NCBI GenBank assembly: GCA_009691415.1
Contig: SICP01000002.1
Coordinates: 36,547 to 100,546 of the forward strand
Direction of reading: 5' to 3'
DNA: 64,000 nucleotides
From: Candidatus Margulisiibacteriota bacterium
GTDB taxonomy: Bacteria; Margulisbacteria; Marinamargulisbacteria; SXXA01; SICP01
Position 1 is the first letter of the stretch; each line of letters starts with the position of its first letter. Shown here one piece after another: positions 23,318 through 46,400 of the stretch. A model generated the notes under the pieces. That model ran no database searches. It saw nothing but the letters and a program-made list of their open reading frames with translations, and was not told where the DNA came from. Both the position numbers and the translations under genes were made by a program.

Positions 23318-23503
23318 ATGACTACCTACCTTTAATGATAACTTGCCACCCATAAAGAGGGATAGCGTAGAAAATTTTAAGGCGAAATTTATAGTATGTC
23401 AAGCTTTTTCTAGAGACCCCACAAAAATAAAATGCAAGTTCTCCAGAAAAACTTACGATACTACAGCCATACAAAGAAAAAAATAAAATGAAGGCAGATT
23501 AAA

Positions 23504-24133: not shown

Positions 24134-25059
24134 AAAGACTAGCGCTAGCAACATGTATCGCAGTGCTTCTATTGAATACTTCTGCAAAAGCAACGGGAGA
24201 CTTCTTCATCTCAACAGATGTAGGATCGTCAGCAGAAATGATTGGCCAAGCCAACATAGAAGGCTTCACCGACAAAGCCAATAACGTTTTCGACAATCCT
24301 GCAGGCCTTTATAGGATAAATCAATTTTCCACCAGTCTCTTCACCACAACATTTTTGAACGAAGTGACTTATAAAAATCTATCTGTCGCAATGAGATTGC
24401 CAGAAGGCATTTTGGGATTAGGATACATGTCTACAGAGGTAAGCGGACTGATCTCAACAACTGCCAGCAGAAATGAAAACCAAGAAATCACAGAAATCAC
24501 ATCAGATGGCAACACGTTCGGTTATAATAACACCATGATCAAAGCAAGTTATCAATGGTCTCAAACGGAACATCTCCATTGGGGAACATCCGCAGTATTT
24601 TATACAACTTCCATAGGGAATGTTACCGGAAAAGGTATTAATCTAGACGCAGGAGTTATCCTAGATTACTATCCTTTAGTACTTTCTATATCAGCAAAAA
24701 ATCTACTTGGGGGCAAAGCAAAGTATTCTAATGGGGGCGAAGAAAATCTTCCAGTACAAACTACTTACGGGGCACAATATAATTTTAATGAATTCCAAGT
24801 TGCTGGACAATTAAAAAGCAAAGGAAGCAATCACAACATGATAAAATCAGCATCGATTGCTTACCACCCAAGCACGCTACCTTTTCTAGAATTATCAGGT
24901 GGTTACAAAGAGTACAGCGTATTAGATGCAGTAAAGAGTAATTTAACATTTGGATTCGGATTAAACCTCTCAACAATCAGCTTCAACTATGCGTATGAGT
25001 CTAGCGAGAACATTCAATTCAACCACAAACATTATTTTTCAGTCAGCCTTTCTTTGTAA
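24130..25059 (+). CDS. predicted outer-membrane beta-barrel protein (possibly PorP/SprF-like)
   Basis: Signal peptide MKRLALATCIAVLLLNTSAKA. Alternating amphipathic beta-strand pattern throughout and an aromatic-rich C-terminal strand. The NVFDNPAGLY segment weakly resembles the NPAxAG signature of PorP/SprF. 4-nt overlap with the upstream gene; lies 17 nt upstream of giant gene 1. Confidence 0.45.
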   Translation: MKRLALATCIAVLLLNTSAKATGDFFISTDVGSSAEMIGQANIEGFTDKANNVFDNPAGLYRINQFSTSLFTTTFLNEVTYKNLSVAMRLPEGILGLGYMSTEVSGLISTTASRNENQEITEITSDGNTFGYNNTMIKASYQWSQTEHLHWGTSAVFYTTSIGNVTGKGINLDAGVILDYYPLVLSISAKNLLGGKAKYSNGGEENLPVQTTYGAQYNFNEFQVAGQLKSKGSNHNMIKSASIAYHPSTLPFLELSGGYKEYSVLDAVKSNLTFGFGLNLSTISFNYAYESSENIQFNHKHYFSVSLSL

Positions 25060-28000: not shown

Positions 28001-31000
28001 AGAACTGTATTTCACGTCAATAATCCCGCAATCTTAGGAAAAAGGGTATCCATTGCTACTACAAATACCAATGTAAAATACAACTTAATTACAGGATCCG
28101 CTTCTTTTAGGCCTCTATTTTTAGACAAGCAATTTATGTCTGCATCTGGAACACCTTGGACAACAACAAGAAATTTTAGCCTATATTTTACAAATGGGAA
28201 AATTGGAATTGGCACAACCGCGCCAACAGTAGCTCTCTCAATAGCAGGAAATATAAAAGCAACAGCCGTCCGCATCAAAGATGCATTTACTGTCAAAGAA
28301 ACAGCAACTTTAATTCGACTTGATTTCTTAAATCCCGATGGCATCTCATTAAAATTAGGGGTAAGCGCCTCGAAGTTACGCCTTGGAGACATCTCTATTT
28401 CAGACATACTCTCAAGGGGAAATAATACAGCACAAACAAAAGGGCCATTACTCTTATGGCAAAGCGCCAATATCATAGGAGACACAAACCTAATATGGTC
28501 ATCTGATTCCGCACCCCCCCATCAAACGGGCACCTTAACCTCTACTAAAAATATCCGAATCCCAACAACACTAACCAAAACAAACTCATTCCAGCAAACA
28601 ACATTGGTACAAGTAGGATCTGCGAACATTACAAACGTACTTAATGTCGCCTCAGATCTCACCCATAACGGAAATTTCTCTAACTCAGAATCACATGCCA
28701 GTCAAAAGATAACCGTCAATTTAGAACCTGGTAATTGGGCAGACCCTATCAATACGACACAACCTATATTCACAGGACTCGACATAAGAATAGTTAATAA
28801 GGCTAATCTAAGTGGTGCTACAAATTTTACAACACAAGCACAAGCAATAGGATTAAATATTGATGTAAGCAAAATAAATACCCAACAAACTGGAGAACCC
28901 GGATTCAATTTTGCCGCTCTTTTTAATGGTAACGTGGGCATTAATACATTCCCATCTCCAACTACTCCAACCAGAGCCATATTGGATATAAAAGGCACCG
29001 TACAAGCAGATTCATTTATCATATCCAAAAGACTCAGCATTTCCACGCTGAACGTAACAGGAGACACGTTAACAATAAAACAAACAAGACCTATTAAAAT
29101 TGGAAATCCTAAACCAACAAACCCTATCTACGATCTTCTGGTACAAGGAACTGTACAAGCAACAAACGGCATTATTGGAACATTAGAATCTGGAGCACTA
29201 AATGCTGCAAATGGGGCTCTTCTCGTAAATACATCCGGGCAAATAGGGATTGGCACAACAGCCCCAGAAGGTACCTTTCACATCAAAAAATTATTTACCA
29301 CAACAACAGGCAGAGATTATTTCGCTAACAGAGTGCATAGCACCGTTGATATTCTGGAAAACCCAAAAAAATTAACAGAAAATCTTACAGGCCTGGGACT
29401 CAATCTAAACACAAAAACAAACAATAAAGTAGGGACGCCACAAACACCTCAAACAGCAACAGGCTTATCCATCAATCTCAGCAATATGACTTCAAACGAT
29501 AATGGTACGGTAATCGGGATTTCCAGCAAAACCAATAAAACCAAAAACCAAACGAAATCTGCCATATTTTCAGGAGGAAATGTTGGCATCGGCGTCACAC
29601 AACCAACCGACACACTCGTTGTAGTTGGAACCATCCGAGCCAAAGCGGTAGACAATACACGCTTATTAACACAACAAGAAGCCGCCTCATTTAATAGACT
29701 TGTTGTAACTAGTAATGCACTCTTTAAAGGCCACGTAACTGCAAACGCAATCTTCGCTACAACCATCATCACCAAAACCGATCAACTCACCATTAACGGT
29801 AGTATCCTTCTCCCTTCAATCGCACTAACTATACAAGAAACTCCAGGATTATTAATTAGCAGAGCACTTTCAATAACAGCTAACACAAAAATAAACGCCC
29901 TCTCCCTCAACGAAAAGCTCGTAGGTACAGCCGCAACATTTAACAAGCTTACTTTGACCAATTCACTCACCACCACCACGCTCAATATCTTGAGCTTACA
30001 AGCAAGTGCCTCTATTGAATTAAATGCCGCACAAGCAAACTTAAATTCACATACAATTATTGCCAGCGGAAAAGTTGGCATTAGCATAACAGACGCAACA
30101 GAACGCCTCGCTATCGCTAGCGATAAAAAAGAATCTACAATCTTCCGTGCTCAAAACCTCTCAGCAACTAAAAATACTGCAGCAGGAATTTTATTGGTTC
30201 CTGACATCAAATCAGACCAAAATACAGGCTCCGGCATTGCAGCCATTAAAGTCACCGCCGCAGGTTCAAATTCACCGGGCTCAGAACTGGCTTTCATCAC
30301 AGATCCCATCAATGGATCTCCTACAGAACGCGCACGTCTTACACAGATCGGAAATTTTGTAATTGGCACAAAAAATGCCTCCAGTACATTATATGTAAAT
30401 CAAACTTCCCTAATACAAGGAGCGGCTACATTTAATACAAAGGTCACCACAAAAACCCTAGCTTCAGCAAGCGACATCATCATCAAAAAAACAACCGTAT
30501 TTAACAACCCAACTGAAATAAGTACGCTCTTAACACAAAAACCTATCCAGATTAAATTGGCAACACTTGGCACCGTTACATCTGGCACCAGCGCATTAAG
30601 TCCCTCCGCATCCGAAAAATTAATATACAAAACGATCCTAGATGACAACTCAGTGGTCGCATCGGATATCACTTCACTCGTAACAGGTTCTGTCGGAAGA
30701 CTTCCCTATTACAACAGCAGTCATAGATTGACAGATAACACATCTTTGACCTGGGCAACACAAAATATATCCAGCATTCCCTATAGCACCCTCGTTATCG
30801 GAAAAGTAAGTTCCGGTAGCATGGCCATCGTAACAACATTCAAAAATACATTAACCGGTACCCCAACCGCAGAAGATATCCAACTCACATTTAAAGACCG
30901 CACTTCTGATATTTCCACATTTGGAGAAAGAAAATTCTACGGAATGCAAATTATCGCTTCCAAAAATACCAATGCGAGCGTTGCTCCTGGGGAAACAGCA

Positions 31001-34000
31001 AGAGGTCTATCTGTTGACCTCTCCACCCTTAAATCAGAAAGCACCACTTTTCAAGGTAACGGCACTATCCTTAAAGGAACAAAATATGCAGCCCTTTTCA
31101 ATGGTGGAAACGTCGGAATTGAAACAATCTCTCCAAACGCTACATTACAAATTCAACCGAAAGATACTATTACCTCCCTACAAATCGACACCAAAACACA
31201 GGCCGGCACAGTCATCACCAAAGCTCTCATGGTCAATACCAGTGGAAATACTAGCATCGGCGCAACCTCAAACACCAAACTAACCCTTAAGCTATTAAAC
31301 ACAACGTCATCAGACTCCACCCTACTGATCACAGATTCAAACAAAAACTCCCTTCTCGCTCTCAAAAATAACAATAGAATCGGCATAGGAAATGTAGCAC
31401 TTACCACCGAATTTAATGTGGCTGACCCAATCAAAGCCAAAACACATACAGCACGAACATTGCTCGCAAATACACTCACCATCAACACCGATAAATTAGT
31501 CGTTCTAACCAACGGAAATGTGGGCATTGGTAATACAAATCCTCAAGCTCAACTCCATCTGATTCAAAAACTCACCCGACAACCTGCCTCCAACTTTATT
31601 ATAGAAAACTTAGGCCTTACGGTTGGAGGCACTCCCCTTAGAACAACGTTAACAGGACTCGCGTTAACAATTACATCCAATGCTTACAATTTATTAGGAT
31701 TCGAGAACACACCAAATAAAGGAACCGGCATTAAATTTTCTGCAACTTCTTTGGCACTCGCCACAACATCCACTTTAGTAGGTATCAACGTTAATGTACC
31801 AAAAGGCACCAGCTCAAACAGTACATTAATCAGAGGAGGAAACGTAGGGATAGGAATAACCAATCCAAGCGCCACACTCCATATCGCAGGCACATTAAAA
31901 GTAAGCGGAAATATTCTTCAAACAACAACTGGAAACCTGTCTATTCCTGGAGTAACCGCAAATAAATTAACATCAACCGGAAGAAATACATTTAACACGT
32001 TTAAAGTCCGTGGCTCAGTAAAAAAAGTAGTGATTACAAATAGATTAATTATTAAAGAATCTTCTGTTTCTCTTCTACAAAAAGCCCCCACCACAAATTT
32101 CATTTTATTAAAAAGCAAGACGCTTGCTCGCTTTACACAAGCATCAACAGGAACAAGCAACATCCCATCAAAAAGCGTATTCAATATCGCTGCTCAATTA
32201 CCAACACAAACAGCTATGACACTTCAAAAAGGAACCGTTATAGCAACAAACATGTCCACACTTACGACAAACCGAGGACTCGTAACACTCACGCATGATA
32301 GTTCATTAGATACACCCCCAATACCCGCGTTAAAAATCGGAACAACCGTAACCCCAAATGCACTATTCGTCAGTAATACGGGACAAGCCAGCGTCGGAAC
32401 CTCTTCAAGCCTTGCAAAATTAACAATCATAGAAGGAAGTGCACGATCAACAGCAAAAGCACTCTTAATTACAAGTTCTGCTGGATCCCCTTTATTAACA
32501 GCACTCAACAACACAACAATAGGCTTAGGAACAAAAACTCCGGAAGCCTTAATCCATATCGTAGGTCAAAGTACCCAGCCTAAAGTTCTAAAATTAGCTT
32601 CATCCGTTTCTGAAAACATATTAACCATGCTAGCAAACGGTGCCATTGGCATTGGCATAACTGCCCCCGATAGCGCGCTACAGGTTCAAGGCACATTCAA
32701 AGTTTCATCAGTAAGTACCCCCAATCTTATTTCTGTATCTAATGCAGGAAACGTAGGAATTTGGAAGACCGCAACCGCAAACTATCCTCTCTATCTTGAC
32801 CAAAATATGCGACTAGGAAACAGCACCGACGGAACACTTCCTAAGTATTTTAGGGACCAGTCTAGAAAAAACAGAGGCTTTATTACACAGACTGGCAGTA
32901 ACCACACATTCTTTGGACTTAGAGAAACAGTCACCGGAAATAGCAACTACGCTCCAGTCATTTATTGGGGAAGCAGCAATACAGATGCCTTAACATTCGA
33001 AACCAGCGCCGGACTTGAAGCTGCCAGATTAATCAATAAATCGGTAAGTATCGGCGGCATCATACCAAGTGCAACATTACATATCAGCAATATCAATAAT
33101 ACCACCGCAGCACTACTCACCTTAAAAACTGCAAAACTACCCAATCTACTTACTGTCACAGCAAATGGCTCAATAGGGATTGGAATCGCGCCAACAATTA
33201 ACGCCGATGTCTTTGTCTCAGGATCCATCAAAGCCAAAGGCCTCAAACAACCACCAGGAGGTACAGAATTAACAGCGCCTACTATTAACATCGTCAATTC
33301 AACAACAACCTATTCAAGTTTTTCAGTATCCTCAAATATCCTGTCAGATCATGCGCAAACAGCAGAAGCTATAACTCTTCAACTTGATAAAGATTCTACA
33401 GGAACCTTGATTGGAAAAAGCATAACGTTGTTATCATCTGTTACACAAAACAACGTAAACAAACTCGCTACGACACAACACGGACTACGTGTAGATATAA
33501 GCAATCTTTTTATCGACAAAAATCCAACATTTGGAGACAATATCGCACAAAAATTTGCAGCTGCTTTTAAAGGAGGCAATGTAGGTGTAGGCACAAAAAC
33601 ACCCAAAACAACGTTTGAAGTAACTACCAGAAAAAACGCGCCTGGCAATATCGCTAGTTTCCGAGCAACCCCCAACATCATCCCTGGTGGTAGCACTCCC
33701 GTAAAACAAGCTGATCTCACCTTCACAAGCTACGCCACAGTCAATATTTCCGGACAAAAATTATCTGTCCCTACAGACTCCTTTAAAACCATCGCATACA
33801 CACTAAAAAATGGCCAACTCTTTAATGGCGGCAACACATTCTACGTAACAGACGACATCGCAAAAGATATCATGTCAAAACTTATCCAAAGTAACATCAT
33901 TGACCCCACTACTAGAAACGTACTCCAAACAACTAAAGCGGCCCTGATCACGGCGATTGGTACAGGTTCATCTCCCGGATATTTTAGAGACTACATCACC

Positions 34001-35449
34001 ACAAAAAATGTCTTATCTATTCTCTTACCCTTCATCGAAAAACACACCATTGTTCTGCAACATACAGATCTTAGTAGCGCAGCAACTAGTTACAACGTAC
34101 TAAGTTTTAGCTCAGGACTCGTAGCAAGAAGACCCAATATTGATAGTCCCGTCAATACAACCAAATTATTACAAAACGCCTTTAAATTTTCGGGCAGCGT
34201 GGGTATTGATGTTAAAAAAATTGATATACCGTCACAAAACACCACACTAACCGTCAGTGGCAATATTAGGATCGGTACCATCTTCAATACTTTTAGCGTA
34301 GAACCCGTCGCGGTTGGACCTAGTCTTCGATTCTCTGGTGGTTACCTAGTCAGCGACACAGCCCCTAATAGTGACAACAAAGAAGCGTTTTCTATACTTC
34401 GCAACAATATTGAAGACGGAATCTCTCAATTACGTATCACAGTCGGAGCAGAAAGCACCAGACCAAATGCACTATTCACTGTTGGATATAATACAAAAGG
34501 ACGCACTACAGAATTCAGTGGCGGCTCTTGGAAAAATGTACTCAATGTTCTCGCAACACAAAATGGAACAACTCCTGTTGAACGCGTTGGCATAGGAACA
34601 ACAACACCACGGGCTACGTTACATATTGTAGGAACAGGCAGTTTTAACGAGCTTACTGATACCCCCACAAATATCGCCAAAACCGCACTGGCTCTATTCG
34701 AAAACCAATCCTCTTCTGGCGCACAAACATTAGCTATTAAAAATAGTACAGAGGCTGGACTAACCTCAGAAGCCAATTTTATTACCTTCCTAAGTTCAAC
34801 CACCAATACCAGTACAATAGCGACATTGGGATCTATCGAAGGAAATACAGACGGTGGCGTCAAATTTACATCCCCTGAGGGAGACTATGCAGAGTACATT
34901 CTTAAAGAGAATCCCCAAGAAAATTTAGAGCCCGGAACCGTTGTCGGTATTCATAAAGGCACTATCAGTAAAAACACACAGGGCGCTGATCAAATCATGG
35001 TCATCAGTTCCTCACCTATTATAGTTGGAAACGCAACCAAAGAAACACATAAAAACAGTGCTATGGTTGCCTTCCTAGGACAAGTGCCCATCAACGTCAC
35101 AGGAACAGTGAACGCGGGAGATCTTCTCATCGCATCTGGTCAAAATGACGGCTTAGCCATTGCCCTGTCTGCCAACAAAATTACAGCCTCTCAAATCGAT
35201 CTTATTCTGGGTCGCGCTTGGGAAAGTTCAGACCAAGTAACTGTTAAATCTATAAAATCAGCGATCGGATTTTCTTATGGATTACAAATTTTTGGAACCC
35301 AATTGTCAAGCATAAAAACAATGACATCCAATGTAAAAACCCTACAAAAAGAACTCGCACAAAAACGAAAAGACTCCCTAGAAATACTCGAAAAACGTCA
35401 GAATAAAATCAACCTATTAAAAGAAAAAATAGGGACGGCCATCCCATGA
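25076..35449 (+). CDS. giant secreted fibre-like repeat protein, 3457 aa (GTG start)
   Basis: Uninterrupted 10.4-kb ORF with signal peptide MKRKLLLTLLTWLILFATAEFAQV. A degenerate repeat architecture is punctuated more than 30 times by G-N-V-G-I-G-T-x-x-P-x-x-x-L-x-V. There is an SxAxG-rich block around 26860..27200. It is T/N/S/G-rich. The C-terminal module carries a GDYAEY motif and a terminal coiled coil. It is a paralogue of the gene at 37426..47187. Confidence 0.85.
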   Translation: MKRKLLLTLLTWLILFATAEFAQVTFTFKGSLMRADKTFINGTYNNVKVGIYSDVDESVADVWSEIQNGVVFETGRFSILVGNVDPVANPLRIRTFNINLPHLGFTINGSEFFIPFTSTPYSMRTKVAEKTSAVSAQYIVGTFTKPVAIKSTLTITSGNTTLLKTTALSQVGIGKDNPLTKIVNGKTVAAAQLDVNGPVNSSSGFKLNGIDIARTLSWKQNAPITKNIYYASGNVGIGLQNPQYALDVQGTLNATQLLLKGKRLSAGLDWQHEVNASQNLYFKTEADNRVGIGRVDPQQSLDVNGSIAVSSNITDQTTPLRGMIRMSPTSNEIQGFRDNQWIQLTGLRGQGQKNQISFFTNKFVLSGYTPFSWKSQTNLLGIGTTSPLSQLHLVKTETLAPSLYIQTATNLPLLVVTSNGNIGVGTSNPNQKLVVKGTLNSEQLTVNGLDLSLAVSNSSVWILNKQSSLFYKLGNIGIGKIDPNSPLTIAQRVNHPDEDPAITFRQNSGNSYTMGISSKRPDIFRVERGDKLNTTTPLFVMKNYSFGTGLTDPLALLHVSGNEGAVFNGKFFGVIDETFPDVDSAGKPILPQVVQEGEGTRFIWHPLRAVLRAGTVTGNQWNNINLGKFSVAFGLNNTASGNFTTILGGKNNLATGAYSTILGGENNKAMGDFSLASGYRAKALHHGSFVWGDRSGTALSTIALNQFLVKVSNGVGIGTALTSIEGKKSTLTIKKVTPSGNIFQIVGKNLATDIFQVSTSGNAIIGSRSRTTAGLSVMGKTQFGNKQVPPTINSFLTISSESPTQAIWISNSNEDINTTPNFILTSSGNLGTNIIPLPDVITKFKNGTVQIGRGGILGNSYELPDGTKIGTKATEVWGLDAAPNVYFTTGNVGIGTTRPTSLLTISNVASKLFQSPKNPAITFSKNTTHYILGIENNVPDTLKMLSGYDLAQPSKLAFKYSENTLGRIGVGTENPRTVFHVNNPAILGKRVSIATTNTNVKYNLITGSASFRPLFLDKQFMSASGTPWTTTRNFSLYFTNGKIGIGTTAPTVALSIAGNIKATAVRIKDAFTVKETATLIRLDFLNPDGISLKLGVSASKLRLGDISISDILSRGNNTAQTKGPLLLWQSANIIGDTNLIWSSDSAPPHQTGTLTSTKNIRIPTTLTKTNSFQQTTLVQVGSANITNVLNVASDLTHNGNFSNSESHASQKITVNLEPGNWADPINTTQPIFTGLDIRIVNKANLSGATNFTTQAQAIGLNIDVSKINTQQTGEPGFNFAALFNGNVGINTFPSPTTPTRAILDIKGTVQADSFIISKRLSISTLNVTGDTLTIKQTRPIKIGNPKPTNPIYDLLVQGTVQATNGIIGTLESGALNAANGALLVNTSGQIGIGTTAPEGTFHIKKLFTTTTGRDYFANRVHSTVDILENPKKLTENLTGLGLNLNTKTNNKVGTPQTPQTATGLSINLSNMTSNDNGTVIGISSKTNKTKNQTKSAIFSGGNVGIGVTQPTDTLVVVGTIRAKAVDNTRLLTQQEAASFNRLVVTSNALFKGHVTANAIFATTIITKTDQLTINGSILLPSIALTIQETPGLLISRALSITANTKINALSLNEKLVGTAATFNKLTLTNSLTTTTLNILSLQASASIELNAAQANLNSHTIIASGKVGISITDATERLAIASDKKESTIFRAQNLSATKNTAAGILLVPDIKSDQNTGSGIAAIKVTAAGSNSPGSELAFITDPINGSPTERARLTQIGNFVIGTKNASSTLYVNQTSLIQGAATFNTKVTTKTLASASDIIIKKTTVFNNPTEISTLLTQKPIQIKLATLGTVTSGTSALSPSASEKLIYKTILDDNSVVASDITSLVTGSVGRLPYYNSSHRLTDNTSLTWATQNISSIPYSTLVIGKVSSGSMAIVTTFKNTLTGTPTAEDIQLTFKDRTSDISTFGERKFYGMQIIASKNTNASVAPGETARGLSVDLSTLKSESTTFQGNGTILKGTKYAALFNGGNVGIETISPNATLQIQPKDTITSLQIDTKTQAGTVITKALMVNTSGNTSIGATSNTKLTLKLLNTTSSDSTLLITDSNKNSLLALKNNNRIGIGNVALTTEFNVADPIKAKTHTARTLLANTLTINTDKLVVLTNGNVGIGNTNPQAQLHLIQKLTRQPASNFIIENLGLTVGGTPLRTTLTGLALTITSNAYNLLGFENTPNKGTGIKFSATSLALATTSTLVGINVNVPKGTSSNSTLIRGGNVGIGITNPSATLHIAGTLKVSGNILQTTTGNLSIPGVTANKLTSTGRNTFNTFKVRGSVKKVVITNRLIIKESSVSLLQKAPTTNFILLKSKTLARFTQASTGTSNIPSKSVFNIAAQLPTQTAMTLQKGTVIATNMSTLTTNRGLVTLTHDSSLDTPPIPALKIGTTVTPNALFVSNTGQASVGTSSSLAKLTIIEGSARSTAKALLITSSAGSPLLTALNNTTIGLGTKTPEALIHIVGQSTQPKVLKLASSVSENILTMLANGAIGIGITAPDSALQVQGTFKVSSVSTPNLISVSNAGNVGIWKTATANYPLYLDQNMRLGNSTDGTLPKYFRDQSRKNRGFITQTGSNHTFFGLRETVTGNSNYAPVIYWGSSNTDALTFETSAGLEAARLINKSVSIGGIIPSATLHISNINNTTAALLTLKTAKLPNLLTVTANGSIGIGIAPTINADVFVSGSIKAKGLKQPPGGTELTAPTINIVNSTTTYSSFSVSSNILSDHAQTAEAITLQLDKDSTGTLIGKSITLLSSVTQNNVNKLATTQHGLRVDISNLFIDKNPTFGDNIAQKFAAAFKGGNVGVGTKTPKTTFEVTTRKNAPGNIASFRATPNIIPGGSTPVKQADLTFTSYATVNISGQKLSVPTDSFKTIAYTLKNGQLFNGGNTFYVTDDIAKDIMSKLIQSNIIDPTTRNVLQTTKAALITAIGTGSSPGYFRDYITTKNVLSILLPFIEKHTIVLQHTDLSSAATSYNVLSFSSGLVARRPNIDSPVNTTKLLQNAFKFSGSVGIDVKKIDIPSQNTTLTVSGNIRIGTIFNTFSVEPVAVGPSLRFSGGYLVSDTAPNSDNKEAFSILRNNIEDGISQLRITVGAESTRPNALFTVGYNTKGRTTEFSGGSWKNVLNVLATQNGTTPVERVGIGTTTPRATLHIVGTGSFNELTDTPTNIAKTALALFENQSSSGAQTLAIKNSTEAGLTSEANFITFLSSTTNTSTIATLGSIEGNTDGGVKFTSPEGDYAEYILKENPQENLEPGTVVGIHKGTISKNTQGADQIMVISSSPIIVGNATKETHKNSAMVAFLGQVPINVTGTVNAGDLLIASGQNDGLAIALSANKITASQIDLILGRAWESSDQVTVKSIKSAIGFSYGLQIFGTQLSSIKTMTSNVKTLQKELAQKRKDSLEILEKRQNKINLLKEKIGTAIP
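25777..34640 (+). repeat. array of degenerate protein-level repeats in giant gene 1 marked by the ggaaaYgtNggNatYgg (G-N-V-G-I-G) signature
   Basis: Examples at 25777, 26338, 26497, 27739, 29578, 31108, 31513, 31843 and 32749. The units are diverged at nucleotide level, so these are not identical tandem DNA repeats. Confidence 0.7.
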
Positions 35450-35973
35450 ACGAAAAACATATCCATTCCGAACAAATTTATAAGGGCCGTATTATAAATC
35501 TGAAAAAAAATACGGTACTCCTTACCAATGGAAAAACCGCCACCAGAGAAATTGTTGAGCACGATCCCGCAGTCGTTATCATCGCCTACGATACAAATAA
35601 AACAATTCGGCTAGTCAAACAATACCGCACCCCCGTACAACAAGTTCTACTCGAAGCCCCTGCCGGAATAATTAATAAAGGTGAGCTTCCTCTCAACGCA
35701 GCTAAACGAGAATTACAAGAAGAGACAGGCCTCACCGCAACACAGTGGACCTCCTTAGGCGAAGCCTACCCTGCCCCAGGATTTTGCAATGAATACCTTT
35801 ATTTTTTTCTTGCACAAGACCTTCAGCAAGGGCCACCAAATCCAGATGAAGATGAATTTTTAGAACAGGTAACACTCTCAATGCCAGAATACAAACACCA
35901 CATCCAAACAAAACAAATTATCGATGCCAAAACCATTATGTCTTTTTTTTACATAAAGGAGCACGGATTATGA
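35446..35973 (+). CDS. NUDIX hydrolase (ADP-ribose pyrophosphatase-like)
   Basis: Nudix box GIINKGELPLNAAKRELQEETGL. 175 aa. ATGA overlap with the stop of giant gene 1. Confidence 0.85.
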   Translation: MNEKHIHSEQIYKGRIINLKKNTVLLTNGKTATREIVEHDPAVVIIAYDTNKTIRLVKQYRTPVQQVLLEAPAGIINKGELPLNAAKRELQEETGLTATQWTSLGEAYPAPGFCNEYLYFFLAQDLQQGPPNPDEDEFLEQVTLSMPEYKHHIQTKQIIDAKTIMSFFYIKEHGL

Positions 35974-36839
35974 AAAACCATATGCCCGCATTTTTTCACT
36001 ATCTCTCCTATGAAAAAAGAGTCTCTCCCAACACCATAACTGCATACAAACAAGATCTCACACAGTTTTTTGAACGCCACTCAGAACTCTCAGGAAATAC
36101 CATTTCTCAGTTTATAGCAGACCTAACACAACACGGTTACAAAAATGCATCCATCACACGCAAAACATCTTCTCTTAAAACATTCACAACATTTCTCTAT
36201 CGAGAAAAATATATACCCACCCATCCCATCGCACTTTTAACACGTCCGAAACATGAGAAACGCCTCCCAACAATACTACATTCACACGAAATTAATGCTA
36301 TATTGAATACCTCGTCTGATCATACTAAAACCCCACTGAGAGATACCGCGCTAGTCGAAATACTTTATGGATGCGGACTTAGAATTACAGAATGTCTAAA
36401 TATCAAACTCACCGACATCAACAACGCTCAACAAACCTTACTTGTAACAGGAAAAGGGCAAAAACAACGTCGACTACCTATTGGCACCAAAGCCCATGAA
36501 GCCCTTACAACCTACATCAAAAACGAACGTCCCTTGTTAGAAAAAACCAATCCATCGGACTATCTCTTTATCACGCGCTCCGGAAAAAAATTATCCAGAC
36601 AAAACAGCTTCAACCGCATCAAAGCTCTCGCCAAACAAGCATCTATAACCAAAAAAATGAGTCCTCATACCCTTAGACATACCTACGCCACCCATTTGCT
36701 AGACGGCAACGCAACGCTTCTAGAAGTACAATCTCTCCTCGGACACAGTCACATAACAACAACCCAGCTCTATACAAAAGTTTCTACAAAGCGTCTCAAA
36801 GAAAGCTATTACCAAGCACACCCGAGGGCATTAGCATGA
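35970..36839 (+). CDS. xerD: tyrosine site-specific recombinase XerD/XerC-like
   Basis: 289 aa. N-terminal SAM-like core-binding domain (LSYEKRVSPNTITAYKQDL). Catalytic residues sit in GLRITE (R), HTLRHTYAT (H-x-x-R) and LGHSHITTTQLYTKV (H, Y). ATGA overlaps at both ends. Confidence 0.9.
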   Translation: MKNHMPAFFHYLSYEKRVSPNTITAYKQDLTQFFERHSELSGNTISQFIADLTQHGYKNASITRKTSSLKTFTTFLYREKYIPTHPIALLTRPKHEKRLPTILHSHEINAILNTSSDHTKTPLRDTALVEILYGCGLRITECLNIKLTDINNAQQTLLVTGKGQKQRRLPIGTKAHEALTTYIKNERPLLEKTNPSDYLFITRSGKKLSRQNSFNRIKALAKQASITKKMSPHTLRHTYATHLLDGNATLLEVQSLLGHSHITTTQLYTKVSTKRLKESYYQAHPRALA

Positions 36840-37429
36840 TTATAGCCATCAGCATTCTCTCGCTTCTCATAGCCGTTATCTTCCATGAAGTAGCCCATGG
36901 TTATGTAGCCTATCGATTTGGAGATCCCACAGCCAAACTTCAAGGACGAATTAGCCTCAACCCACTTGTTCACATTGACTGGTTAGGCTCTATTATCTTG
37001 CCAGGCATCCTTATCCTTTCGGGAGCTCCATTTCTAATAGGATGGGCAAAACCGGTACCCATCAACCCCAATTATTTTCAAAATCCTCTCCGGGACATGA
37101 TGTGGGTAGCCATCGCAGGGCCACTAACAAATATCACGATAGCCCTCTTTGCCAGCACAGTTTTAAAATTCCATCTCAACAGTGTTCTCGACTATTTTTT
37201 AGTCGTTTCAATTAGTATTAATATCGTACTTGCACTCTTCAATCTTTTCCCCATCCCACCGCTTGATGGATCTCGGATACTCATGTACATAGCCCCAAAA
37301 TCCATCCAACACTTTTTAACATCCATAGAGCCTTACGGGTTTGTTATTCTATTTTTCTTAGTCTATCTCAACGTTTTTCAGAAGATCTTGCCGTTTCTAA
37401 TCCACCCCATATTGGAGGCACTATTATGA
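36836..37429 (+). CDS. site-2 protease family (M50B) integral membrane zinc metalloprotease, 197 aa
   Basis: HEVAHGYVAYRFGD (HExxH) in TM1, LNPLVHIDWLGS, and the ...FNLFPIPPLDGSRIL motif typical of M50B proteases. ATGA overlap with the start of giant gene 2. Confidence 0.8.
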   Translation: MIIAISILSLLIAVIFHEVAHGYVAYRFGDPTAKLQGRISLNPLVHIDWLGSIILPGILILSGAPFLIGWAKPVPINPNYFQNPLRDMMWVAIAGPLTNITIALFASTVLKFHLNSVLDYFLVVSISINIVLALFNLFPIPPLDGSRILMYIAPKSIQHFLTSIEPYGFVILFFLVYLNVFQKILPFLIHPILEALL

Positions 37430-40400
37430 AATGCAAGTTTTTCCAGAAAAGACTCGATATGAAAAATAAGAAAATCAAAAAAAATAAGGGTATAATTGTG
37501 AAAACACTCATGAAAACAAAAACGTTAATCACCCAAGCCCACCTATGGATAGCTATCCTCTTCCTAACTTTGCTTACATCTGTGAGCTTTGCGACTACCC
37601 CAATGGTCTTAACATTTCAGGCTACCCTAGCCAGACAACAAGGAGGACTTATTCAAGGAAGAAACAAAGTAACGATTGGAATATATCCGGGAAATTCAAT
37701 TGAACCCACCTGGATTGAGCCTCACAATAACGTACTCTTTATCAACGGTAGTTGCAGTATCATTCTGGGAAATATACAACCGCTTACCCCAGACCATCTC
37801 AATGTTCCAAATCCTCGCTTCGGACTAAAAGTGGGTAACACTTCACAAATTGCCTATTTTCCTGTTCCATCAACCCCGTATTCCATACAATCTAAACTAG
37901 CTGACAGTGCACTCTCCGTTTCAGCCAACAATATTTCAGGAACCTTCACAAATCCAGTTAGGATTAACGCAAACCTAACTGTAGGCGACACAACCCTATA
38001 TGCCAATCCAACCACAGGAAAAGTAGGTATCGGGACTACCGCCCCCACTTACAAACTGGATGTTGCAGGAATCATTAATGCAACCGGATTTAAAATTAAC
38101 GGCATCGACTTAGAATCTTCATTATCTTGGCAAAAAAAAGCCAATAACGCTCTATACTACACACAAGGAAACGTCGGAATAGCAACACAAAATCCAAAAA
38201 CACGTCTAGAAGTCGCTGGGACCATCAATGCACAAGAAATACGAATCAAAGGCGTTGAACTCTCAATCCTACTTGCCACTCAACTTGCCTGGCGTGAAGG
38301 TGCTAGACCTAAAGACATCTATTTTAATGACGGTACTCAAGAAGGCAATGTAGGAATTGGCACATCGATACCACGATCAAAACTAGATGTTGCTGGAGCT
38401 ATTCGCGTAGGAGAAGCCCAAAGTAACACACTGGGAAGCATTCAATATAAAAACAATGATTTCCAAGGATTTACAAAAACAGGATGGACTTCTTTTGCCT
38501 CTCTATCCGGTATCGGCGCAGCTAATCAAATTCCTTTCTGGACAAATTCCACAGAACTTTCCGGAAGCACTAATTTAGTCTGGGATCGCACACGAAATAG
38601 ATTAGGCATTGGAACAAATAACCCTACAGCACAACTCAGCATGACTGCCATTGACGCCAATCGTGCACTTGTACGCATCGACAATTCATTAGGGAAAACA
38701 CTATTTTATGTAGGCAGTCAAAATGTTGGGATTGGAACATCAACCCCAAATAGCAAACTAACCGTAAAAGGAGTCGTTGATGCGGAAGCCTATCTCGTCA
38801 AAGGGGTTCCTATCGCACAAGCCCTGTCTTCAAACTCATTTTGGGTTTTCCAAAACGATGGACGTATTTACTATGATAAAGGCAACGTGGGAATTGGCAC
38901 AATAAATCCTAAAAATCTTTTAGAACTAGCCGCAGCCCCATCACGAGACCCCATCATTACATTTGATATTGCAAGCAACCCCGCTTTCAGTTTAGGTATA
39001 TCAGCATCAAATCCAAATGCCTTCATATTAGGAAAAGGAGGGGATCTCAAAAACCCAATTTTTGTTTTTAATGGCAATAAAATTGGCGTAGGTCTCACCT
39101 CACCGAGCGCCAATTTACATGTGAGTGGAAACAGCGGCGTTCTTTTCACAGGAACACTAAATAATGGAACTCCCCTTGGCTTAAAAGGTGAAGGCACACG
39201 ACTCGTTTGGCACCCAGGAAAAGCCGCATTTAGAGCAGGTTATGTTAATAGAAAACAATGGGATGAAGAAAATATTGGTCTGTATTCTGTAGCAATGGGA
39301 TATAATCCCTCAGCCAATGGACTTGCATCGGTAGCAGCGGGTGGTTACGAAAGTGATGCAGGCGGAAATTATGCAGTGGTTGCCGGTGGATTCAAAAATA
39401 AGGCAAAAGGTATCCATAGTTTCGCTGCAGGGCACCAAGCATTAGCTCTCCATGCCGGATCATTCGTATGGAGTGATTATTCTCCAACTGCATCAGAAAC
39501 AAGCTTTAAATCAGTAATGTCCAACCAATTTGTTATACGTGCTACAAATGGTGTCGGTATTGGAACAAACCTAACAGCAGGAAATGGGCTCACTGTTGCA
39601 TCAGATTTTAATGACACTTATATCGTAAATGCACTAAAACCAGATGGAACAAGCGCCATGATCATCAACGTATCAGGCAATGTTGGATTGGGAACAACCG
39701 ATCCAGGAATCGCTAAACTTGCTGTCATGAACGGAAAAGTTGGGATAGGAACAACCACACCGATCGCGCAATTAACTCTATCGGGAAGTACACCTGACGG
39801 ATTCCAATTTGTCGCTTATAAAAAAACAGGAGTACCCGCATTCTTTATAAAAAACGACGGCAGAATCGGAATCGGAAAACCTCTAAACTATGTATTCGCT
39901 GATGACATCTATTTGGCTATTTCAGGCGCTATTGTAGGCAATGCCTTTGCCATACAAAATCCAAATGGAAGTCAGACACAGTTAGAAAGTAATCCAGGAT
40001 CACCTTGGGCCATCCCTTCTGAAAATCTTAACAGCACTTTCTTCAATAAAGGCTTTGTAGGAATAGGAACAAAAGCACCTGCAAGTCTTCTGGAATTGTC
40101 CAACGCCGCCTCATCAACTCGAAATCCAGTCATTACATTCGACACAGATGGCGTCAAAAGATTTAGTTTAGGTACAACTGCAAATGTATTTACTATTCAA
40201 AAAGGTGGCACTATCAATAGTAAAAACCCACTTTTCGCACTCACAGATAATGGTAACGGGGGTGGTGGCGTTGGCATTGGCATTGGTTACAAAACCCCCA
40301 GCGCCTCTCTACATGTCAGTGGCAATTCTATGTTTACCAGTAAAGTCGTCATTGCCACAACCAATACCACGCAGATCTATGACTTAACTGTAGAGGGAGC

Positions 40401-43400
40401 AATAAATGTCAAAACACTATTTATAAACGGAGATCAATTTATCCCTCAACCTAACCCATGGAAAACAAATGAACTAGACATCTACTACCCAAGCGGAAAC
40501 GTGGGAATCGGAACAAGAACCCCTAGTGCAAAACTTGAAGTTATTGGAACTGTTTCTGCCAATCAGATCATACAACGTGATGCATTCATACTAAACGGAA
40601 ACCTCACGACAAACAAATTGAGACTCAAAGATACCAGCGCCAATGTAACCCAGTACGGAGAACTTGCAGTCACAAACGAAGAACTGATTTACATAGATCC
40701 CGCTAGAAACCTCAAAGTTATTTCATCTCCATTAAGACGAAATTCTAATGCAGCTTTTGACGGAAAACTTGCGTATTGGATCGACAACTCTACTGTCGGC
40801 GTAAGCAATATTTTATGGAAACATGCAACTAACGAATTAGTCCTATCAGGCAATTTGGTTGTGAATGCCTCTTCACAAGAAACAGATGGATTCACAGCGC
40901 TCTCTCATGTGTCAATGGGACTTCCAAATGCTCTCGAAATCACAAGCACTATCAATCATGGAGGTGATTTAAGAACAGTAAGAAGCTACACAGGACAAAA
41001 CATCCTCGTAAACGTACAGAAAAACTGGGGAAATATTAACTCCGCTGTTTCGGTAAAAGGTCTAGACATTATCATGCAACAAACTGCTAACAATCTCTTT
41101 TTAAACAAAGCCAAAGCCATAGGCCTCAACGTCGATATGTCTAGAGTAAATGTTGATGTAATAGGAGGCGGAAAAAAAGCAGCTGCCATCTTTACAGGAG
41201 GCTTTGTAGGTATTGGCACAACAAATCCTAAAACAGCACTCGAAGTAGTAGGAACTGTTTCCGCAAATTATTTTAACCTAACCGGCGGATTAACTGTTCC
41301 AGAACTCTTTGTTAATACAGATGCACTTGTTGCATACAAAGATGTATCCACACAAACTCCTCGCGTAGGTATAGGCACAACAAGTCCTAGAACAGAATTA
41401 GATATTATTGGAACGGTATCTGCAAATGTATTTAATGTCGCAAATACATTTACAGTAGCAACACTCAATGTAAATAAAGGCGCTTTATTCGTAAATAGTG
41501 CTGGAAATATTGGAATTGGTACCACACAACCCAATGGGCAAATTGAATTAAAGAAAATACTCAGCACCACCCCTAGCTCACCTTTCTTTGCAGAAAAGAT
41601 TGGCGTCACAATAGATGGTGCAGGAAAAGATCAAACCTTTGCCTTCAATAAAAATTTAAGCGGTTTAGACATTACCTTAGACTCAGAAACAGGAAGCCAA
41701 ATTGGAAACGGTAAAATCGCAACAGGTGTAAGTGTCAATTTAACAAATCTAGAACTTGATCCAGCAAGCACCGCTGTAGGACTTAATGTGAATGTAACAG
41801 GCACAACAGGCAAAAGATTTGCCGCCATTTTTACAGGGGGCCGTGTAGGTATAGGCGTCACACAACCCTTAGCAGAACTACACGTAAGTGGCAGTATCAA
41901 AGCAGACAATCTAGTACTTGAAGGTACTTTAGAAGCAAATATAGCCACATTTAACAGACTCACAATCAATCAAACCGGTCTATTTAACAATTCTGTAACT
42001 ATTAATACACTTACTGTACTTGGAAAGCTAAGCGCAAATTCACTTGTACTCAGCACCCCCTTAATAGCCGGACAAGGAACCTTTTCAACCCTTAATGCAC
42101 AAGTCGCATCCTTCAATAAAGTCACGCTAAATACACTCACCGTAAACAGTATAAATGGCAGCGCTACAACAGCCACACTTAATACACTCACCGTTACAGG
42201 AAAAACACGTGCGCAATCCGTCATAATCACCAAGAGCCTAACCCTCACAAATGCAACGATGAACATCAATAACAATACACTCGTGGTCACGACTAGTAAA
42301 AATGTAGGTATCGGTACAAGAACCCCCCTTACCATCCTACATGTCGAAAATGCCAATGCAAACGTATTTTCAGCTGAAAATAACAATACATGGAATACAA
42401 TACGCATTCAAAACAACAACAATGCCGCAAATTCCGCAGCATCTATTTTATTGGTTCCTGATGAGAGACACCCCTCATTCAGCATTGGCTCAGGCATCTC
42501 CGCAGTCAGAAGTAATAGCAGCATAAATTCTGGGTCAGACCTAGTATTTGTCACCGATAGAAATAGCAGTGCTCCAGTAGAGGGAATGCGCATTACAGAA
42601 GCAGGAAATATTGGTATTGGCACATCAACACCCAAAGCCCAACTCGATGTACAAGGAACAGCTTGGTTCAATAGCACTGTAACCATAAATGGCACATTAG
42701 GTGTAGGAACACTCAATAGCACAAACAATTTAACGATTAATACACCCAGGGGGAAAAGTATCTTTCAAAATACCGTTTCTGCCAATGCCAGCATACAAAT
42801 ACAAAACGGTTTATTTTTCAAAGGAACCACACCACCTACAACACAAGCAGGTTATGGAGCTCTCTATATGCTTAGTACAGACAAAAATCTATACTACCAA
42901 AGTCCAGCAGGAACCAGCATTAACCTAACCGCCGCCTATACAGGTAGAAATGGTATTATTCCATTCTTTAACGCCAAAAACAGCCTCGATGATACAGCGC
43001 CCCTTTACTGGAACAACACCAGCAAAACACTCACCGTAGGAACCGGCAATATCGTGAGCAATGTCAAAATTGTCAGTGTGATTGATAACAGTACCAATCC
43101 AACAGAATTTGCAGGACAAAATATATCGCTTGAATTCGGAAACCGTACAACAGCCAGCACCACTGTATTTTCAGGATTAAATATACAGCTTAAAGGCCAA
43201 ACCCCTAACGATCCCTTTACATTCGGACGCTTAGCTCAAAACGAAGTTGCAATAGGATTAAATGTAGATGTCAGTAACCTAGCTGCACGTCGAACCAATT
43301 CTCTAGGAAACAATCTCACAGGATTTAAGTACGCCGCAATATTTACTGGTGGCAGTGTCGGCATCGGCAATAAAACGCCCATTGCATCACTACATATCAC

Positions 43401-46400
43401 TACAGATGTAACAGGAAATCCAAGTCTAATTGTAGATAGCAAAAGTTCTTCAGGAACCCTCATACAAAATGCACTCGTTGTCTCCAGTAACAGTTTTGTA
43501 GGTATAGGAACGGCCGCACCATTAGCAAGACTTCATGTCGTTGGCTCTGACAGCAGCACAAACAATGCCGCCTTAAGAATTGTAGATACTGGAGGCAGCA
43601 CGCTACTAATCGTTAAAAATAACGGTAACGTAGGTATCGGCAAATCCAACCCACAATCCAAACTAGATATCAACGGAACATTAACCGCGACAACCGGTAG
43701 TTTTGATGGTGTGACCGCAACAACATTAAATGTTGGCAATGGAAATCTTTTTGTGAATGCCAGCGGCAATGTAGGTATCGGTACCATAACCCCCACTGGA
43801 AATATTAACTTTTTCAAGAGAATTACTTCATCCAATATCCCTGTTGGAAGCTTCACTTCACAAAAAATGGACCTCATCATATCTGGAGGAACCGTCAATA
43901 ATTTATTTAGCCTTAATAAAGACATTACAGGTATTAATCTATCCCTAAGCTCCGAAGCCAATAACGTCCTTGCTGCCAGTAAAACAGCAACAGGAATTAA
44001 AATTGATATGAGTCCATTAAAAACGGAAACAAACACAACCGTAACCGGGTTAGATATTGATGTAACAGGTACAACGGGCACTCGATATGCCGCGCTCTTC
44101 CAAGGAGGTAATGTAGGAATTGGGCTGACACAACCCACCACCGCACTACACGTCTCTGGAAATATCAAAACAACCTCTTTAATCAGTGATGGAAGTATCA
44201 ACGTCGGGACTGTCACAGCCAATAGCTTACACATAGCAGGAGACGCTAGGTTTACAGGCAGTGTAACCATTAACACATTAGAAGCAACCACCGTGTCTGC
44301 AAACAATTTAACACTCACAGGAACACTCACATTAGAAAAAGCAAATCTTAGTATACTCACTGGCACAACAGCCAAATTCACCCAACTAGGAATCGGAGTC
44401 TCTCCTAATAACGCCTTAGACGTCAGTGGAAACTTAACAGTGGCCAAAGGAAGAATCGGTATCGGAATCACTGCTCCAACAGCCCTGCTCCATCTCTCAT
44501 CCCTCAACCAAAACGCTCTGGTGATTGATGTCAAAAACAGCACAACAACGACACGAAATGTACTCTTGGTAAATAGTATAGGATACGTCGGCATCAGCAC
44601 TGCCAACCCAAGTGCCAAACTCAGCATCGTGGCAGACAATAGCAGCGCCACCAACTATGCCTTAAAAATTAACAACCTCACTAAAAATATTTTAACGTTA
44701 CAAAATGATGGCAACATGGGCGTTGGAACCGCCAATCCACAAGCGATTCTCCACACCGTTGGCACAGCCAGCACGGCTCCACTACGAATTGACACCAATA
44801 CGATCTCCTTTGCATTGGTTGCAAGCCAAAACGGTAGAATTGGTGTAGGCACAGCCAATCCACAAGCATTACTACATATCGTCAACAGTAATATCTCTCC
44901 ATTCAAAGTAGGCACTGCTACACAACCCAACGCACTATTGGTTGATAACAATGGACGTGTAGGAATTGGTAGTAGTAGTTTAACCTTCCCATTAAATGTG
45001 AGTGGAAACATGTTATTAGGATCAGACCCTTCCGGCAGCAGCATAGCCTCTTGGATTAGCAGCTCAAAAACAGCAGGGGTACTCGCAAGTAGAGGAACTA
45101 AATATGCATTCTTCGGAGCGAAAGAAAAAACATCTGGATCCAATAATTACAATGCAGTAGTCAGCTGGAAAACCGGCGACACACTTACATTTGAAAATAG
45201 CACCAACCCATTATTATACATTCAAGGAAATGGACAAGTTGGAATAGGGTCTACCTCAAATGCACAATTAAACGTGAGTGGAAACAGTACTACGCCACTC
45301 CTTCAAATCGGTACGGCAAGCTCACCTTTTGCACTGATCGTTTCAGGAAATGGCCGCGTAGGAATTGCGACTTCCAACCCCTCCGCAGAACTAGCCATCA
45401 ACGGAACTTTAATGGCCAAAAAACTAACCATCTTAAGTGATACAGTCAGTGTATCTACCCTCAACGTCACAAAGCAATTAACAATATTTCGCACGATTAC
45501 AAATGTAACTAAGCCAGCAACAGCGCAAAGTATTACACTCAATTTAGGAGCAGACGTTGCCAACAACATCGTTGGATTAGACATCAATCTCAAATCATCC
45601 TTACACAGCTCTTTAAGTAGAAACAATGCCCTATACAACGCAAATGCCTATGGATTAAAAGTAGATATGACCAATCTTGAAATCACAGATCCCACTCTTG
45701 GAAATTCCTCTAATGGCAATAAATACGCAGCAACATTTACAGGAGGTGCAGTCGGTATCGGAACATCCAAACCATCCGTATTATTCCAAGTCATCGGTGC
45801 TGCGGGTGGAGACATTGCTCAATTTGGCACACTCGAAAATGCAGCCCTCACAATCCAAGATGTGGATACAGGGTTAATGCGAATAAATTTAGTAGATCAA
45901 ACAGATACGTTAAGCAAACACGAAACCCTCGTCTTTTATAAAGACATCGTTGGTATCGGCACAAATACAGACACCATCAAAGCAGAAGATTCTAATACTA
46001 AATTACTTGTAAATGGTGATGTGAGAGTCGGTGTATTAAGAACCACAGGCCAACTTAACATGGCAGGAGTCACAGACCCACTAAATGAACCCAGAGCCTA
46101 TGGAGCAAAACTTTATTTCTCAGGAGCGGCAGACGTATCAACCCAATATGATAACGACAACAATAGTCCTTTATGGATGGCCCGATATAATAGAGGCAAC
46201 GAAATTTCTGAATTACGCGTCAACGTCGGGAATGGAGACGGTGATAAATTTGTTGTAGGTACCGGAATAGGCGGCAGCACCTTCAAACCTATTCTAATTG
46301 CTATTCCAAAAAGTACTTCAGGTGCAAATAGAGTTGGCATCACAGATGGAACCGTCAATAACTTTACCCCCACCGCACCATTACACGTCATCGGTAGTAC

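Follow-up and report, generated by a model that had tools for sequence, protein, structure and literature searches.

In Bacilli, the gene for the tyrosine recombinase XerD is found within the scpA/scpB cluster, as documented by an analysis of Firmicutes cell-cycle gene clusters (PMC8136486). Tyrosine recombinases also occur beside surface-protein genes, in genetic switches such as those of FimB/E, the Bacteroides invertases and the shufflons. In this report we describe a chromosomal locus of Candidatus Margulisiibacteriota bacterium (assembly GCA_009691415.1, contig SICP01000002.1, positions 36,547 to 100,546), where genes for a Nudix hydrolase, a Xer-type tyrosine recombinase and a small M50-family protease are lined up between two paralogous genes for giant, fibre-like proteins (giant1 and giant2). 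"The window" denotes the whole stretch of 64,000 nucleotides that was analysed, and positions are counted from its first letter. An earlier note on this DNA had called the context of the recombinase unusual and had offered two explanations, namely a housekeeping XerD caught in a large gene cluster, or a recombinase and a protease functionally tied to the giant proteins through recombinational switching or fibre maturation. The first of these is probably closer to the truth: the trio likely represents a housekeeping block that became enclosed when a fibre gene was duplicated in tandem early on, together with its promoter, and the fibre genes would be controlled by two copies of an alternative-sigma-type promoter.

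The five co-directional open reading frames (ORFs) giant1-nudix-xer-M50-giant2 correspond to the NCBI accessions MSR88196-MSR88200 (Table 1). An ATGA overlap is present at each of the four junctions, as had been noted before; three of these overlaps are firm, and the last one (37426/37429) hangs on the start codon of giant2. Overlaps of 4 nt are common in this genome region, where they account for 9 of 32 same-strand junctions in the window and for 5 of 28 outside the giant-gene locus. A single overlap thus carries little weight, and four in succession fit compact operon packing without indicating a special link between the genes.

The recombinase shares the two-domain architecture of the XerD/XerC-dif system, with an N-terminal Phage_int_SAM_1 domain (PF02899, E = 7e-16) and a C-terminal catalytic Phage_integrase domain (PF00589, E = 4.3e-43). 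The complete R..HxxR..Y catalytic set that had been read from the translation is confirmed by an alignment of relatives, in which R138, K162/K165, H233-x-x-R236, H259 and Y268 are invariant; the enzyme thus has the full R-K-H-R-H-Y set of its Xer counterparts. Among solved structures, E. coli XerD (1a0p, E = 1.5e-51) matches it best, and the named proteins closest to it beyond its own clade are annotated as XerD, come from many phyla and share 40-42% identity with it. NCBIfam models of FimB/E-like tyrosine invertases yield only about 52-60 bits. Among the subfamily and equivalog models, the protein passes only PRK00283 (294.7 against a cut-off of 279), and its NCBI name is simply "tyrosine recombinase". 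Judged by these similarities, the recombinase is a member of the housekeeping XerD group and not of the invertases. No second Xer gene is present in the 64-kb window.

The genomic company of such genes elsewhere points in the same direction. ORFs were called around 80 M50 loci of GTDB genomes, the neighbours were clustered and the assignments confirmed by Pfam. At 17 of the 80 loci trpS follows M50 immediately; scpA and scpB lie downstream at six loci each and a gene for a RluB-like pseudouridine synthase at four, and a CBS/poly(A)-polymerase-like gene is found upstream at ten. A Xer recombinase gene is located within 3.3 kb of M50 at approximately 12 loci, including six where it lies immediately upstream on the same strand. 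The xerD-M50 pair recurs in many phyla, usually followed by trpS-scpA-scpB. Among metagenome loci, 28 of 80 carry a Xer gene within 3.2 kb of M50, and the pair also turned up in a plain metabolic context when an XerD of 40% identity was looked up independently (L091 and L092; L-numbers are labels of comparison loci).

Even the whole trio exists without giant genes. The loci L100, L104, L122 and L151 have the order DUF218-nudix-xer-M50-NYN with ATGA overlaps, and their Nudix proteins are 46-52% identical to that of the window. In L104, where the Xer protein is 34% identical, the successive junction offsets are -4, -4, +4 and -4 (the distance between a stop codon and the start of the following gene, written as a negative number where the two genes overlap). 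A further locus, L158, reads pyrG-nudix-xer-...-M50. A Nudix gene upstream of xer was not found among the genome-derived xerD-M50 loci and is confined to the L104-type loci, L158 and the Margulisbacteria loci; the M50 scan of GTDB representatives itself returned no Margulisbacteria locus. The four L104-type loci belong to a marine-metagenome lineage, in which the last gene codes for a NYN (YacP) protein and the M50 protein carries an extra N-terminal extension of about 40 residues.

From its gene families and neighbourhoods, nudix-xerD-M50 is evidently a widespread, ordinary housekeeping block. The earlier suggestion of a housekeeping XerD caught in a large cluster is thereby supported, by the 1a0p match and the XerD homologues as well as by the giant-free xerD-M50 and nudix-xerD-M50 blocks. 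The locus differs from the xerD-scpA-scpB neighbourhood in that scpAB and trpS are not adjacent and two giant fibre genes flank the block.

The enclosed arrangement is itself ancient. The window and L086-L088 (Xer 87% identical in L086) share giant1-nudix-xer-M50-giant2 with offsets of -4 at all four junctions, the last one referring to the longest giant2 ORF. The same order is kept in L173, which is Ca. Marinamargulisbacteria SCGC AAA071-K20 (Xer 35%; offsets +2, -4, -7 and +85), and in L003 (Xer 46%; -23, -11, +3 and +99), where a fragment resembling the C-terminal tail of giant1 precedes the Nudix gene. In L005 (Xer 47%) the order is giant1-xer-M50-giant2, with no Nudix gene and offsets of -4 (giant1-xer), -4 (xer-M50) and +181 (M50-giant2). 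L095 (Xer 47%) comprises xer-M50-giant2, the upstream part lying off the contig, with -4 at xer-M50 and, for the longest ORF, -4 at M50-giant2. At the three inner junctions, offsets are -4 throughout the window and L086-L088 and range from -23 to +3 in L173, L003, L005 and L095. The sandwich giant1-(nudix)-xer-M50-giant2 is ancient and deeply conserved in five divergent lineages, represented by the window group, L003, L005, L095 and L173, and the context of the recombinase is indeed unusual.

Within its own species group, the locus is also structurally stable. All fetched assemblies, which derive from different samples, are collinear, with genes of equal length and all four overlaps in place; L001 and L002 are near-identical to the window, and L086, L087 and L088 are 81% identical over 20.6 kb. 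This comparison covers L001, L002 and L086-L088, besides which four further similar places were reported. None of the fetched assemblies shows an alternative orientation.

The sequence in and around the giant genes likewise gives no evidence of recombination. Dif-like sites of the form ATAA-N6-TTATGTNAA, with up to two mismatches, occur ten times in the window against 13.6 expected, and none lies near the locus; the half-site search that the earlier note had proposed thus gave nothing above chance. Between 23.0 and 49.6 kb, the only inverted repeats are seven weak pairs at chance level, in line with the failure to find short inverted sites by eye, and the repeat search otherwise retrieved codon-level GIGT motif families of 60-70% identity. 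When the DNA of giant1 and giant2 was compared by blastn and exact matching, the longest exact match was 17 nt in direct and 14 nt in inverted orientation. The doubts that the earlier note had raised about homologous or site-specific switching are thus borne out. With no dif-like or inverted sites above chance, collinear assemblies and paralogue tracts of at most 17 nt, recombinational switching of the giants is unsupported. Tyrosine-recombinase switches resemble the locus in having a recombinase beside surface-protein genes; they differ in their inverted repeats, their alternative orientations and their invertase-type enzymes, which have no counterpart here.

The giant proteins are paralogues with 32% identity over approximately 3000 residues, and they appear to have their own means of maturation. 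Both end in a region of 350 residues that belongs to a family in which PF11962, the Peptidase_G2 intramolecular-chaperone cleavage domain, is often present; giant1 itself matches PF11962 below the Pfam cut-off (21.7 versus 25). A D-Y-A-E motif, corresponding to the D-x-x-E cleavage motif, is invariant in 12 sequences of this C-terminal family, and the C-terminal profile matches the autochaperone of the phi29 gp12 pre-neck appendage (3gqh, E = 9.8e-5). The GIGT repeats match, at the profile level, the Bdellovibrio fibre Bd2133 (8ond). The giants look self-maturing by means of an autoproteolytic C-terminal domain, whose cleavage is predicted. A role of M50 in fibre maturation is therefore not needed, and the proposal that the protease matures the fibre proteins finds no support.

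GIGT-type repeats and the C-terminal DYAE domain are features that the giants have in common with the Bdellovibrio MAT fibres (Bd2133; PMC10769870), phi29 gp12 and the fibres of extracellular contractile injection systems (eCIS). Yet, with about 3250-3460 residues the giants are several-fold longer than the solved fragments and the homologues compared, they form a conserved tandem pair split by housekeeping genes, and their self-cleavage is a prediction. A cyanobacterial homologue of the C-terminal domain (L174/L175, 6001-7575) is the fibre gene of an eCIS locus that also includes PAAR, gp25, Baseplate_J, Tail_P2_I and eCIS_core, with no xer or M50 gene nearby. The metagenome scan found no relatives of the giant N-terminus.

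The other two members of the trio also bear the marks of intact, common enzymes. The Nudix box GX5EX7REUXEEXGU is complete (G74-x5-E80-x7-R88-E-L-Q-E-E-T-G-L), and the best solved matches are ADP-ribose pyrophosphatases (8wv3, 9jax and 5c7q with E = 1e-26 to 2e-34; 1mk1 with E = 1e-21). The protein falls below the NudE equivalog cut-off. It is similar to the ADP-ribose pyrophosphatases (NudF/ADPRase; 1mk1, 1v8i, 5c7q) over its full length as well as in the Nudix box, and its specificity is predicted from this likeness. The pairing of nudix with xerD recurs in the L104-type loci and L158; in the L005 sandwich the Nudix gene is missing.

The M50 protein retains the motifs HExxH (H17-E18-x-x-H21) and NxxPxxxLDG (136-145; N136, P139, D144-G145) and scores 59.2 bits against PF02163 (Peptidase_M50; cut-off 27.2). 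Its family is near-universal, with 41-50% identity in 80 genomes of many phyla. It resembles the small PDZ-less site-2-protease (S2P) family, whose core fold is that of M. jannaschii MJ0392 (3b4r), in both motifs and in a multi-pass membrane core of about 200 residues, and it has the family's usual place beside xerD; a giant fibre gene, and not trpS, follows it downstream. RseP and SpoIVFB are included among the nearest solved relatives, though distant ones. The small M50 protein of the window has neither a PDZ nor a CBS domain. Both of these proteases act in sigma-factor activation. Among the family assignments of the window, no sigma or anti-sigma gene was found near M50.

A bipartite motif, GCAAGTT-N15-CGATA, is a new feature of the M50/giant2 junction. 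It occurs in two copies in the window, P1 upstream of the whole plus-strand cluster and P2 behind the M50 gene (Table 1), which are the sole matches with up to one mismatch; both are exact, and 0.28 matches are expected by chance. The two copies are similar over about 65 nt, including an A-rich tract and a Shine-Dalgarno sequence after each motif. With the same spacing, the motif is found just past the M50 stop in L173 (3557-3584), L095 (1174-1201) and L003 (2219-2246, one mismatch), and L005 retains the CGATAT box alone. The gap of 15 nt is invariant in five motif copies from four lineages (P1 and P2 of the window, L173, L095 and L003), and the background amounts to one exact match in 2.0 Mb of unrelated loci. 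The copies lie on the coding strand, 36-59 nt before start codons, and the spacer is not conserved. Two short boxes with a fixed gap and an unconserved spacer, together with strand and position, argue for the anatomy of a promoter rather than a recombinase core site.

P1 and P2 resemble sigma-28-type promoters. E. coli FliA promoters follow the pattern TAAAGTTT-N11-GCCGATAA (PMC4183435, Table 2). Similar to FliA/SigD promoters, the motif is bipartite, with a -35-like CAAGTT, a -10-like CGATA(T/C) and fixed spacing; compared to the sigma-28 consensus (-35 TAAA(GTTT), -10 (GC)CGATAA), the spacer is 1 nt longer than in E. coli, and the first bases of the -35 box are GC instead of TA. A promoter of the extracytoplasmic function (ECF) type is a weaker alternative. 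Neither a sigma-28 gene nor a flagellar gene is present in the window.

These predicted promoters modify the view that giant1-nudix-xerD-M50-giant2 forms a single 22-kb transcription unit. No terminator-like sites were found at the junctions of the five genes, which agrees with that view; however, the conserved, promoter-like P2 lies between M50 and giant2. If P2 is a promoter, giant2 can be transcribed on its own, and the 22 kb do not form one simple unit. Candidate sigma-70-like promoters for the trio within the 3' end of giant1 were rejected: the window has such sites, yet L086 and L088 do not preserve their -10 boxes.

P2 is embedded in an unusually conserved block, which covers the 3' end of M50, the ATGA junction, P2 and the 28 codons ahead of the giant2 signal peptide (Table 1). 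When 20.6 kb of the window are aligned with L086 and L088, the three sequences agree at a fraction of 0.756 of positions, and the next longest identical run is at most 47 nt. The lack of synonymous changes in the 106-nt block indicates a constraint on the nucleotides themselves. A stable-fold riboswitch or small RNA was rejected as an explanation (fold z-score +0.56 relative to shuffled sequences, no Rfam match), as was a repeated recombination site, given that the window contains no second full copy.

The start codon of giant2 falls in the same region. Candidates are ATG 37426, ATG 37459, GTG 37498 and ATG 37510. The first has a good Shine-Dalgarno sequence (GGAGG, 37413-37417) and is used by the gene calls of the Logan assembly (3253 residues); NCBI places the start at ATG 37459 (MSR88200.1, 3242 residues). 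The paralogue and all orthologues begin at the start of the signal peptide, near GTG 37498 or ATG 37510. In giant2 the signal peptide starts at about 37510, and GTG 37498 has AAGGG seven bases upstream. The M50-giant2 gap is 85-181 nt in L173, L003 and L005, and an offset of -4 is obtained only with the longest ORF. If P2 is active, giant2 most plausibly starts at GTG 37498 or ATG 37510. The 28-codon extension (37426-37510) that results from the most upstream start is lysine-rich and includes a run of eight A.

Taken together, we consider it likely that an ordinary housekeeping block was trapped between two copies of a duplicated fibre gene, each with its promoter. This scenario builds on the protein families, on synteny, on the conserved motif and on the lack of repeats and variants. 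The recombinase would be the cell's Xer-type chromosome-dimer resolvase and the Nudix enzyme an ADP-ribose pyrophosphatase; M50 would represent a near-universal, PDZ-less S2P family that is usually encoded beside xerD, trpS and scpA/scpB. In an early Margulisbacteria ancestor, the block would have come to sit between the two paralogous giant genes, the likeliest route being a tandem duplication of a fibre gene plus its promoter, and the order would have been kept since. P1 would drive the genes for the small protein with a C-terminal sorting domain (CTD), the PorV-like protein and giant1, and the trio would be expressed by read-through and termination-reinitiation. P2 would drive giant2. The recombinase would leave the fibre genes unrearranged, and the fibres would mature through their own C-terminal autoproteolytic chaperone domain. 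The alternative that giant2 was inserted between M50 and an ancestral downstream gene was tried and dropped, since the 154-aa ORF of the window (47217-47681) is unrelated to the NYN gene of L104.

Several observations weigh against this scenario. The recombinase reaches neither the XerD equivalog cut-off (TIGR02225, 299.7 versus 329.6 bits) nor that of XerC (284.7 versus 335.15 bits). The sandwich has been kept while Xer diverged to 35-47% identity; an order that outlasts the usual neutral gene order may reflect some selective tie, through co-expression or protection of the tandem paralogues. Without a conserved trio promoter in the 3' end of giant1, the recombinase would depend on transcription through a 10-kb fibre gene. 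Finally, four of the five lineages have an ORF that begins no more than 12 nt from the M50 stop and reaches or overruns the giant2 start. The product of the shuffle frequencies for this bridging ORF is 3e-6; the window group and L095 have it as an in-frame fusion, L003 and L005 as a separate upstream ORF (uORF). In L173 it fails, ending 22 nt short of the giant2 start. The bridging ORF hints at real translational coupling from M50 to giant2. An internal promoter and some translational coupling may coexist. The uORFs of L003 (2207-2308, 33 codons) and L005 (4262-4438, 58 codons) start 1-12 nt past the M50 stop and overlap the giant2 start; their peptides are not conserved, and they may serve as a termination-reinitiation relay.

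Some of these observations lend weight to the main rival, a regulatory or functional module, in which the five genes are kept together for linked expression, for example because the trio is expressed solely by read-through from the fibre promoter. Alternatively, M50 may act on the signal or leader peptides of the fibres, or its target may be an anti-sigma factor for P1 and P2. The deep conservation of the sandwich, the bridging ORF in four of five lineages, the position of P2, which abuts the M50 stop within the invariant block, the lack of a conserved internal trio promoter and the kinship of M50 with RseP and SpoIVFB are all in keeping with such a module. We nevertheless regard it as unlikely, given that the trio and the xerD-M50 pair are found in many giant-free lineages, fibre homologues exist that lack xer and M50 neighbours, a predicted autoproteolytic domain is part of the giants themselves, a canonical PDZ-bearing RseP is encoded separately at 20153-21235, and the bridging ORF fails in L173. 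Rather improbable in our estimate is the more specific proposal that giant1-nudix-xerD-M50-giant2 is a selected Margulisbacteria unit, where the resolution and protease genes would be expressed solely as passengers of alternative-sigma fibre genes and M50 or Xer would feed back on fibre production, e.g., through cleavage of the unusual giant2 leader or through control of whichever factor recognizes P1 and P2.

Explanations that assign the recombinase an active part in the locus fare worse. A catalytically complete tyrosine recombinase between paralogous surface-protein genes, with direct motif copies 14 kb apart that flank giant1 and the trio, would fit a Xer-like enzyme that inverts, deletes or shuffles parts of the fibre genes in a phase or antigenic variation. 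The motif copies are, however, bipartite boxes with fixed spacing and an unconserved spacer and not inverted arms, inverted repeats do not exceed chance, assemblies at both 100% and 81% identity are collinear, the enzyme is XerD-like with low scores against FimB/E-like models, and the same trio is known without giants, all of which renders a switch very improbable. Still less credit is due to an integrative element, where the P1-P2 segment of about 14 kb (the CTD gene, the PorV-like gene, giant1 and the trio) would be mobile, with the Xer-like enzyme as integrase and P1 and P2 as att repeats. The direct repeats that bound the segment, and the tyrosine recombinase beside one of them, fit this picture, which we consider extremely unlikely: the repeats have just two short boxes in common, composition is steady across the segment, no tRNA gene is present in the window as a target, the arrangement is vertically conserved as far as Marinamargulisbacteria, and the XerD-like recombinase has housekeeping neighbours elsewhere.

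The tempting story of a recombinase switch for giant surface genes is thus removed as unsupported. In its place, the likely enclosure of the trio provides a clean case, spanning an entire candidate phylum, of housekeeping genes that stay lodged between old tandem paralogues. The conserved promoter-like motif and the 106-nt invariant leader mark the giant fibre genes and may offer a handle on a regulon, or its regulator, in uncultured Margulisbacteria.

Table 1. Genes, promoter-like motifs and conserved block of the giant-gene locus (positions in the 64,000-nt window)
Feature	Position	Strand	Description
P1, GCAAGTT-N15-CGATAC	23434-23461	+	43 nt ahead of the gene that opens the + strand cluster (ATG 23504)
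Small protein with T9SS-type C-terminal sorting domain	23504-24133	+	209 aa; TIGR04183 28.3 bits versus cut-off 23
PorV/PorQ-like outer-membrane protein	24130-25059	+	309 aa; NF033709 PorV_fam E = 7.9e-13, below cut-off
giant1	25076-35449	+	3457 aa; secreted, fibre-like; GIGT-type repeats; C-terminal Peptidase_G2/phi29 gp12-like autochaperone domain (DYAE), predicted
Nudix hydrolase, putative ADP-ribose pyrophosphatase (NudF/NudE) type	35446-35973	+	175 aa; Pfam NUDIX E = 3e-18
Xer-type tyrosine recombinase, XerD-like	35970-36839	+	289 aa; full catalytic set
Small PDZ-less M50 site-2-protease family protein	36836-37429	+	197 aa; Pfam M50
Invariant block	37403-37508	+	106 nt identical in window, L086 and L088; single change further on to ~37533
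giant2, paralogous fibre-like protein	37426-47187	+	3253 aa (longest ORF); start uncertain
P2, GCAAGTT-N15-CGATAT	37433-37460	+	Begins 4 nt past the M50 stop, inside the 106-nt block

The remainder of the window is ordinary chromosome, with ksgA, pdxA, an AcrB-type pump, ilvD, ftsEX, transketolase, RseP and sepF as well as fatty-acid synthesis genes, glnA and pyrG. A second Nudix gene (14387-14821) shares an ATGA overlap with ilvD. Since this gene and the canonical RseP are also encoded in the window, the Nudix and M50 proteins of the trio are additional paralogues and not sole copies. GC skew is constant and strongly negative (-0.03 to -0.34) over the whole window with no switch, so no replication terminus lies within it. 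The 26-kb plus-strand cluster (23504-49568) is located on the C-rich strand, and most housekeeping genes are on the opposite strand; under the usual skew rule, transcription of the giant genes would therefore run head-on into replication.

Directly upstream of giant1, the small protein with a T9SS-type sorting domain, for which Pfam Por_Secre_tail is a weak match, and the PorV/PorQ-like protein are encoded by genes that are likewise joined by an ATGA overlap. The two proteins may be export or anchoring partners of the fibres; to our knowledge, the lineage of the window is not known for type IX secretion (T9SS). Further upstream, a CspA-family cold-shock gene (23102-23317, minus strand) has a leader extending to about 23408, a 5' region that resembles the cspA thermoregulator (RF01766, 49 bits, below the gathering score) and a strong sigma-70-like promoter (23402-23374), which is divergent from P1.

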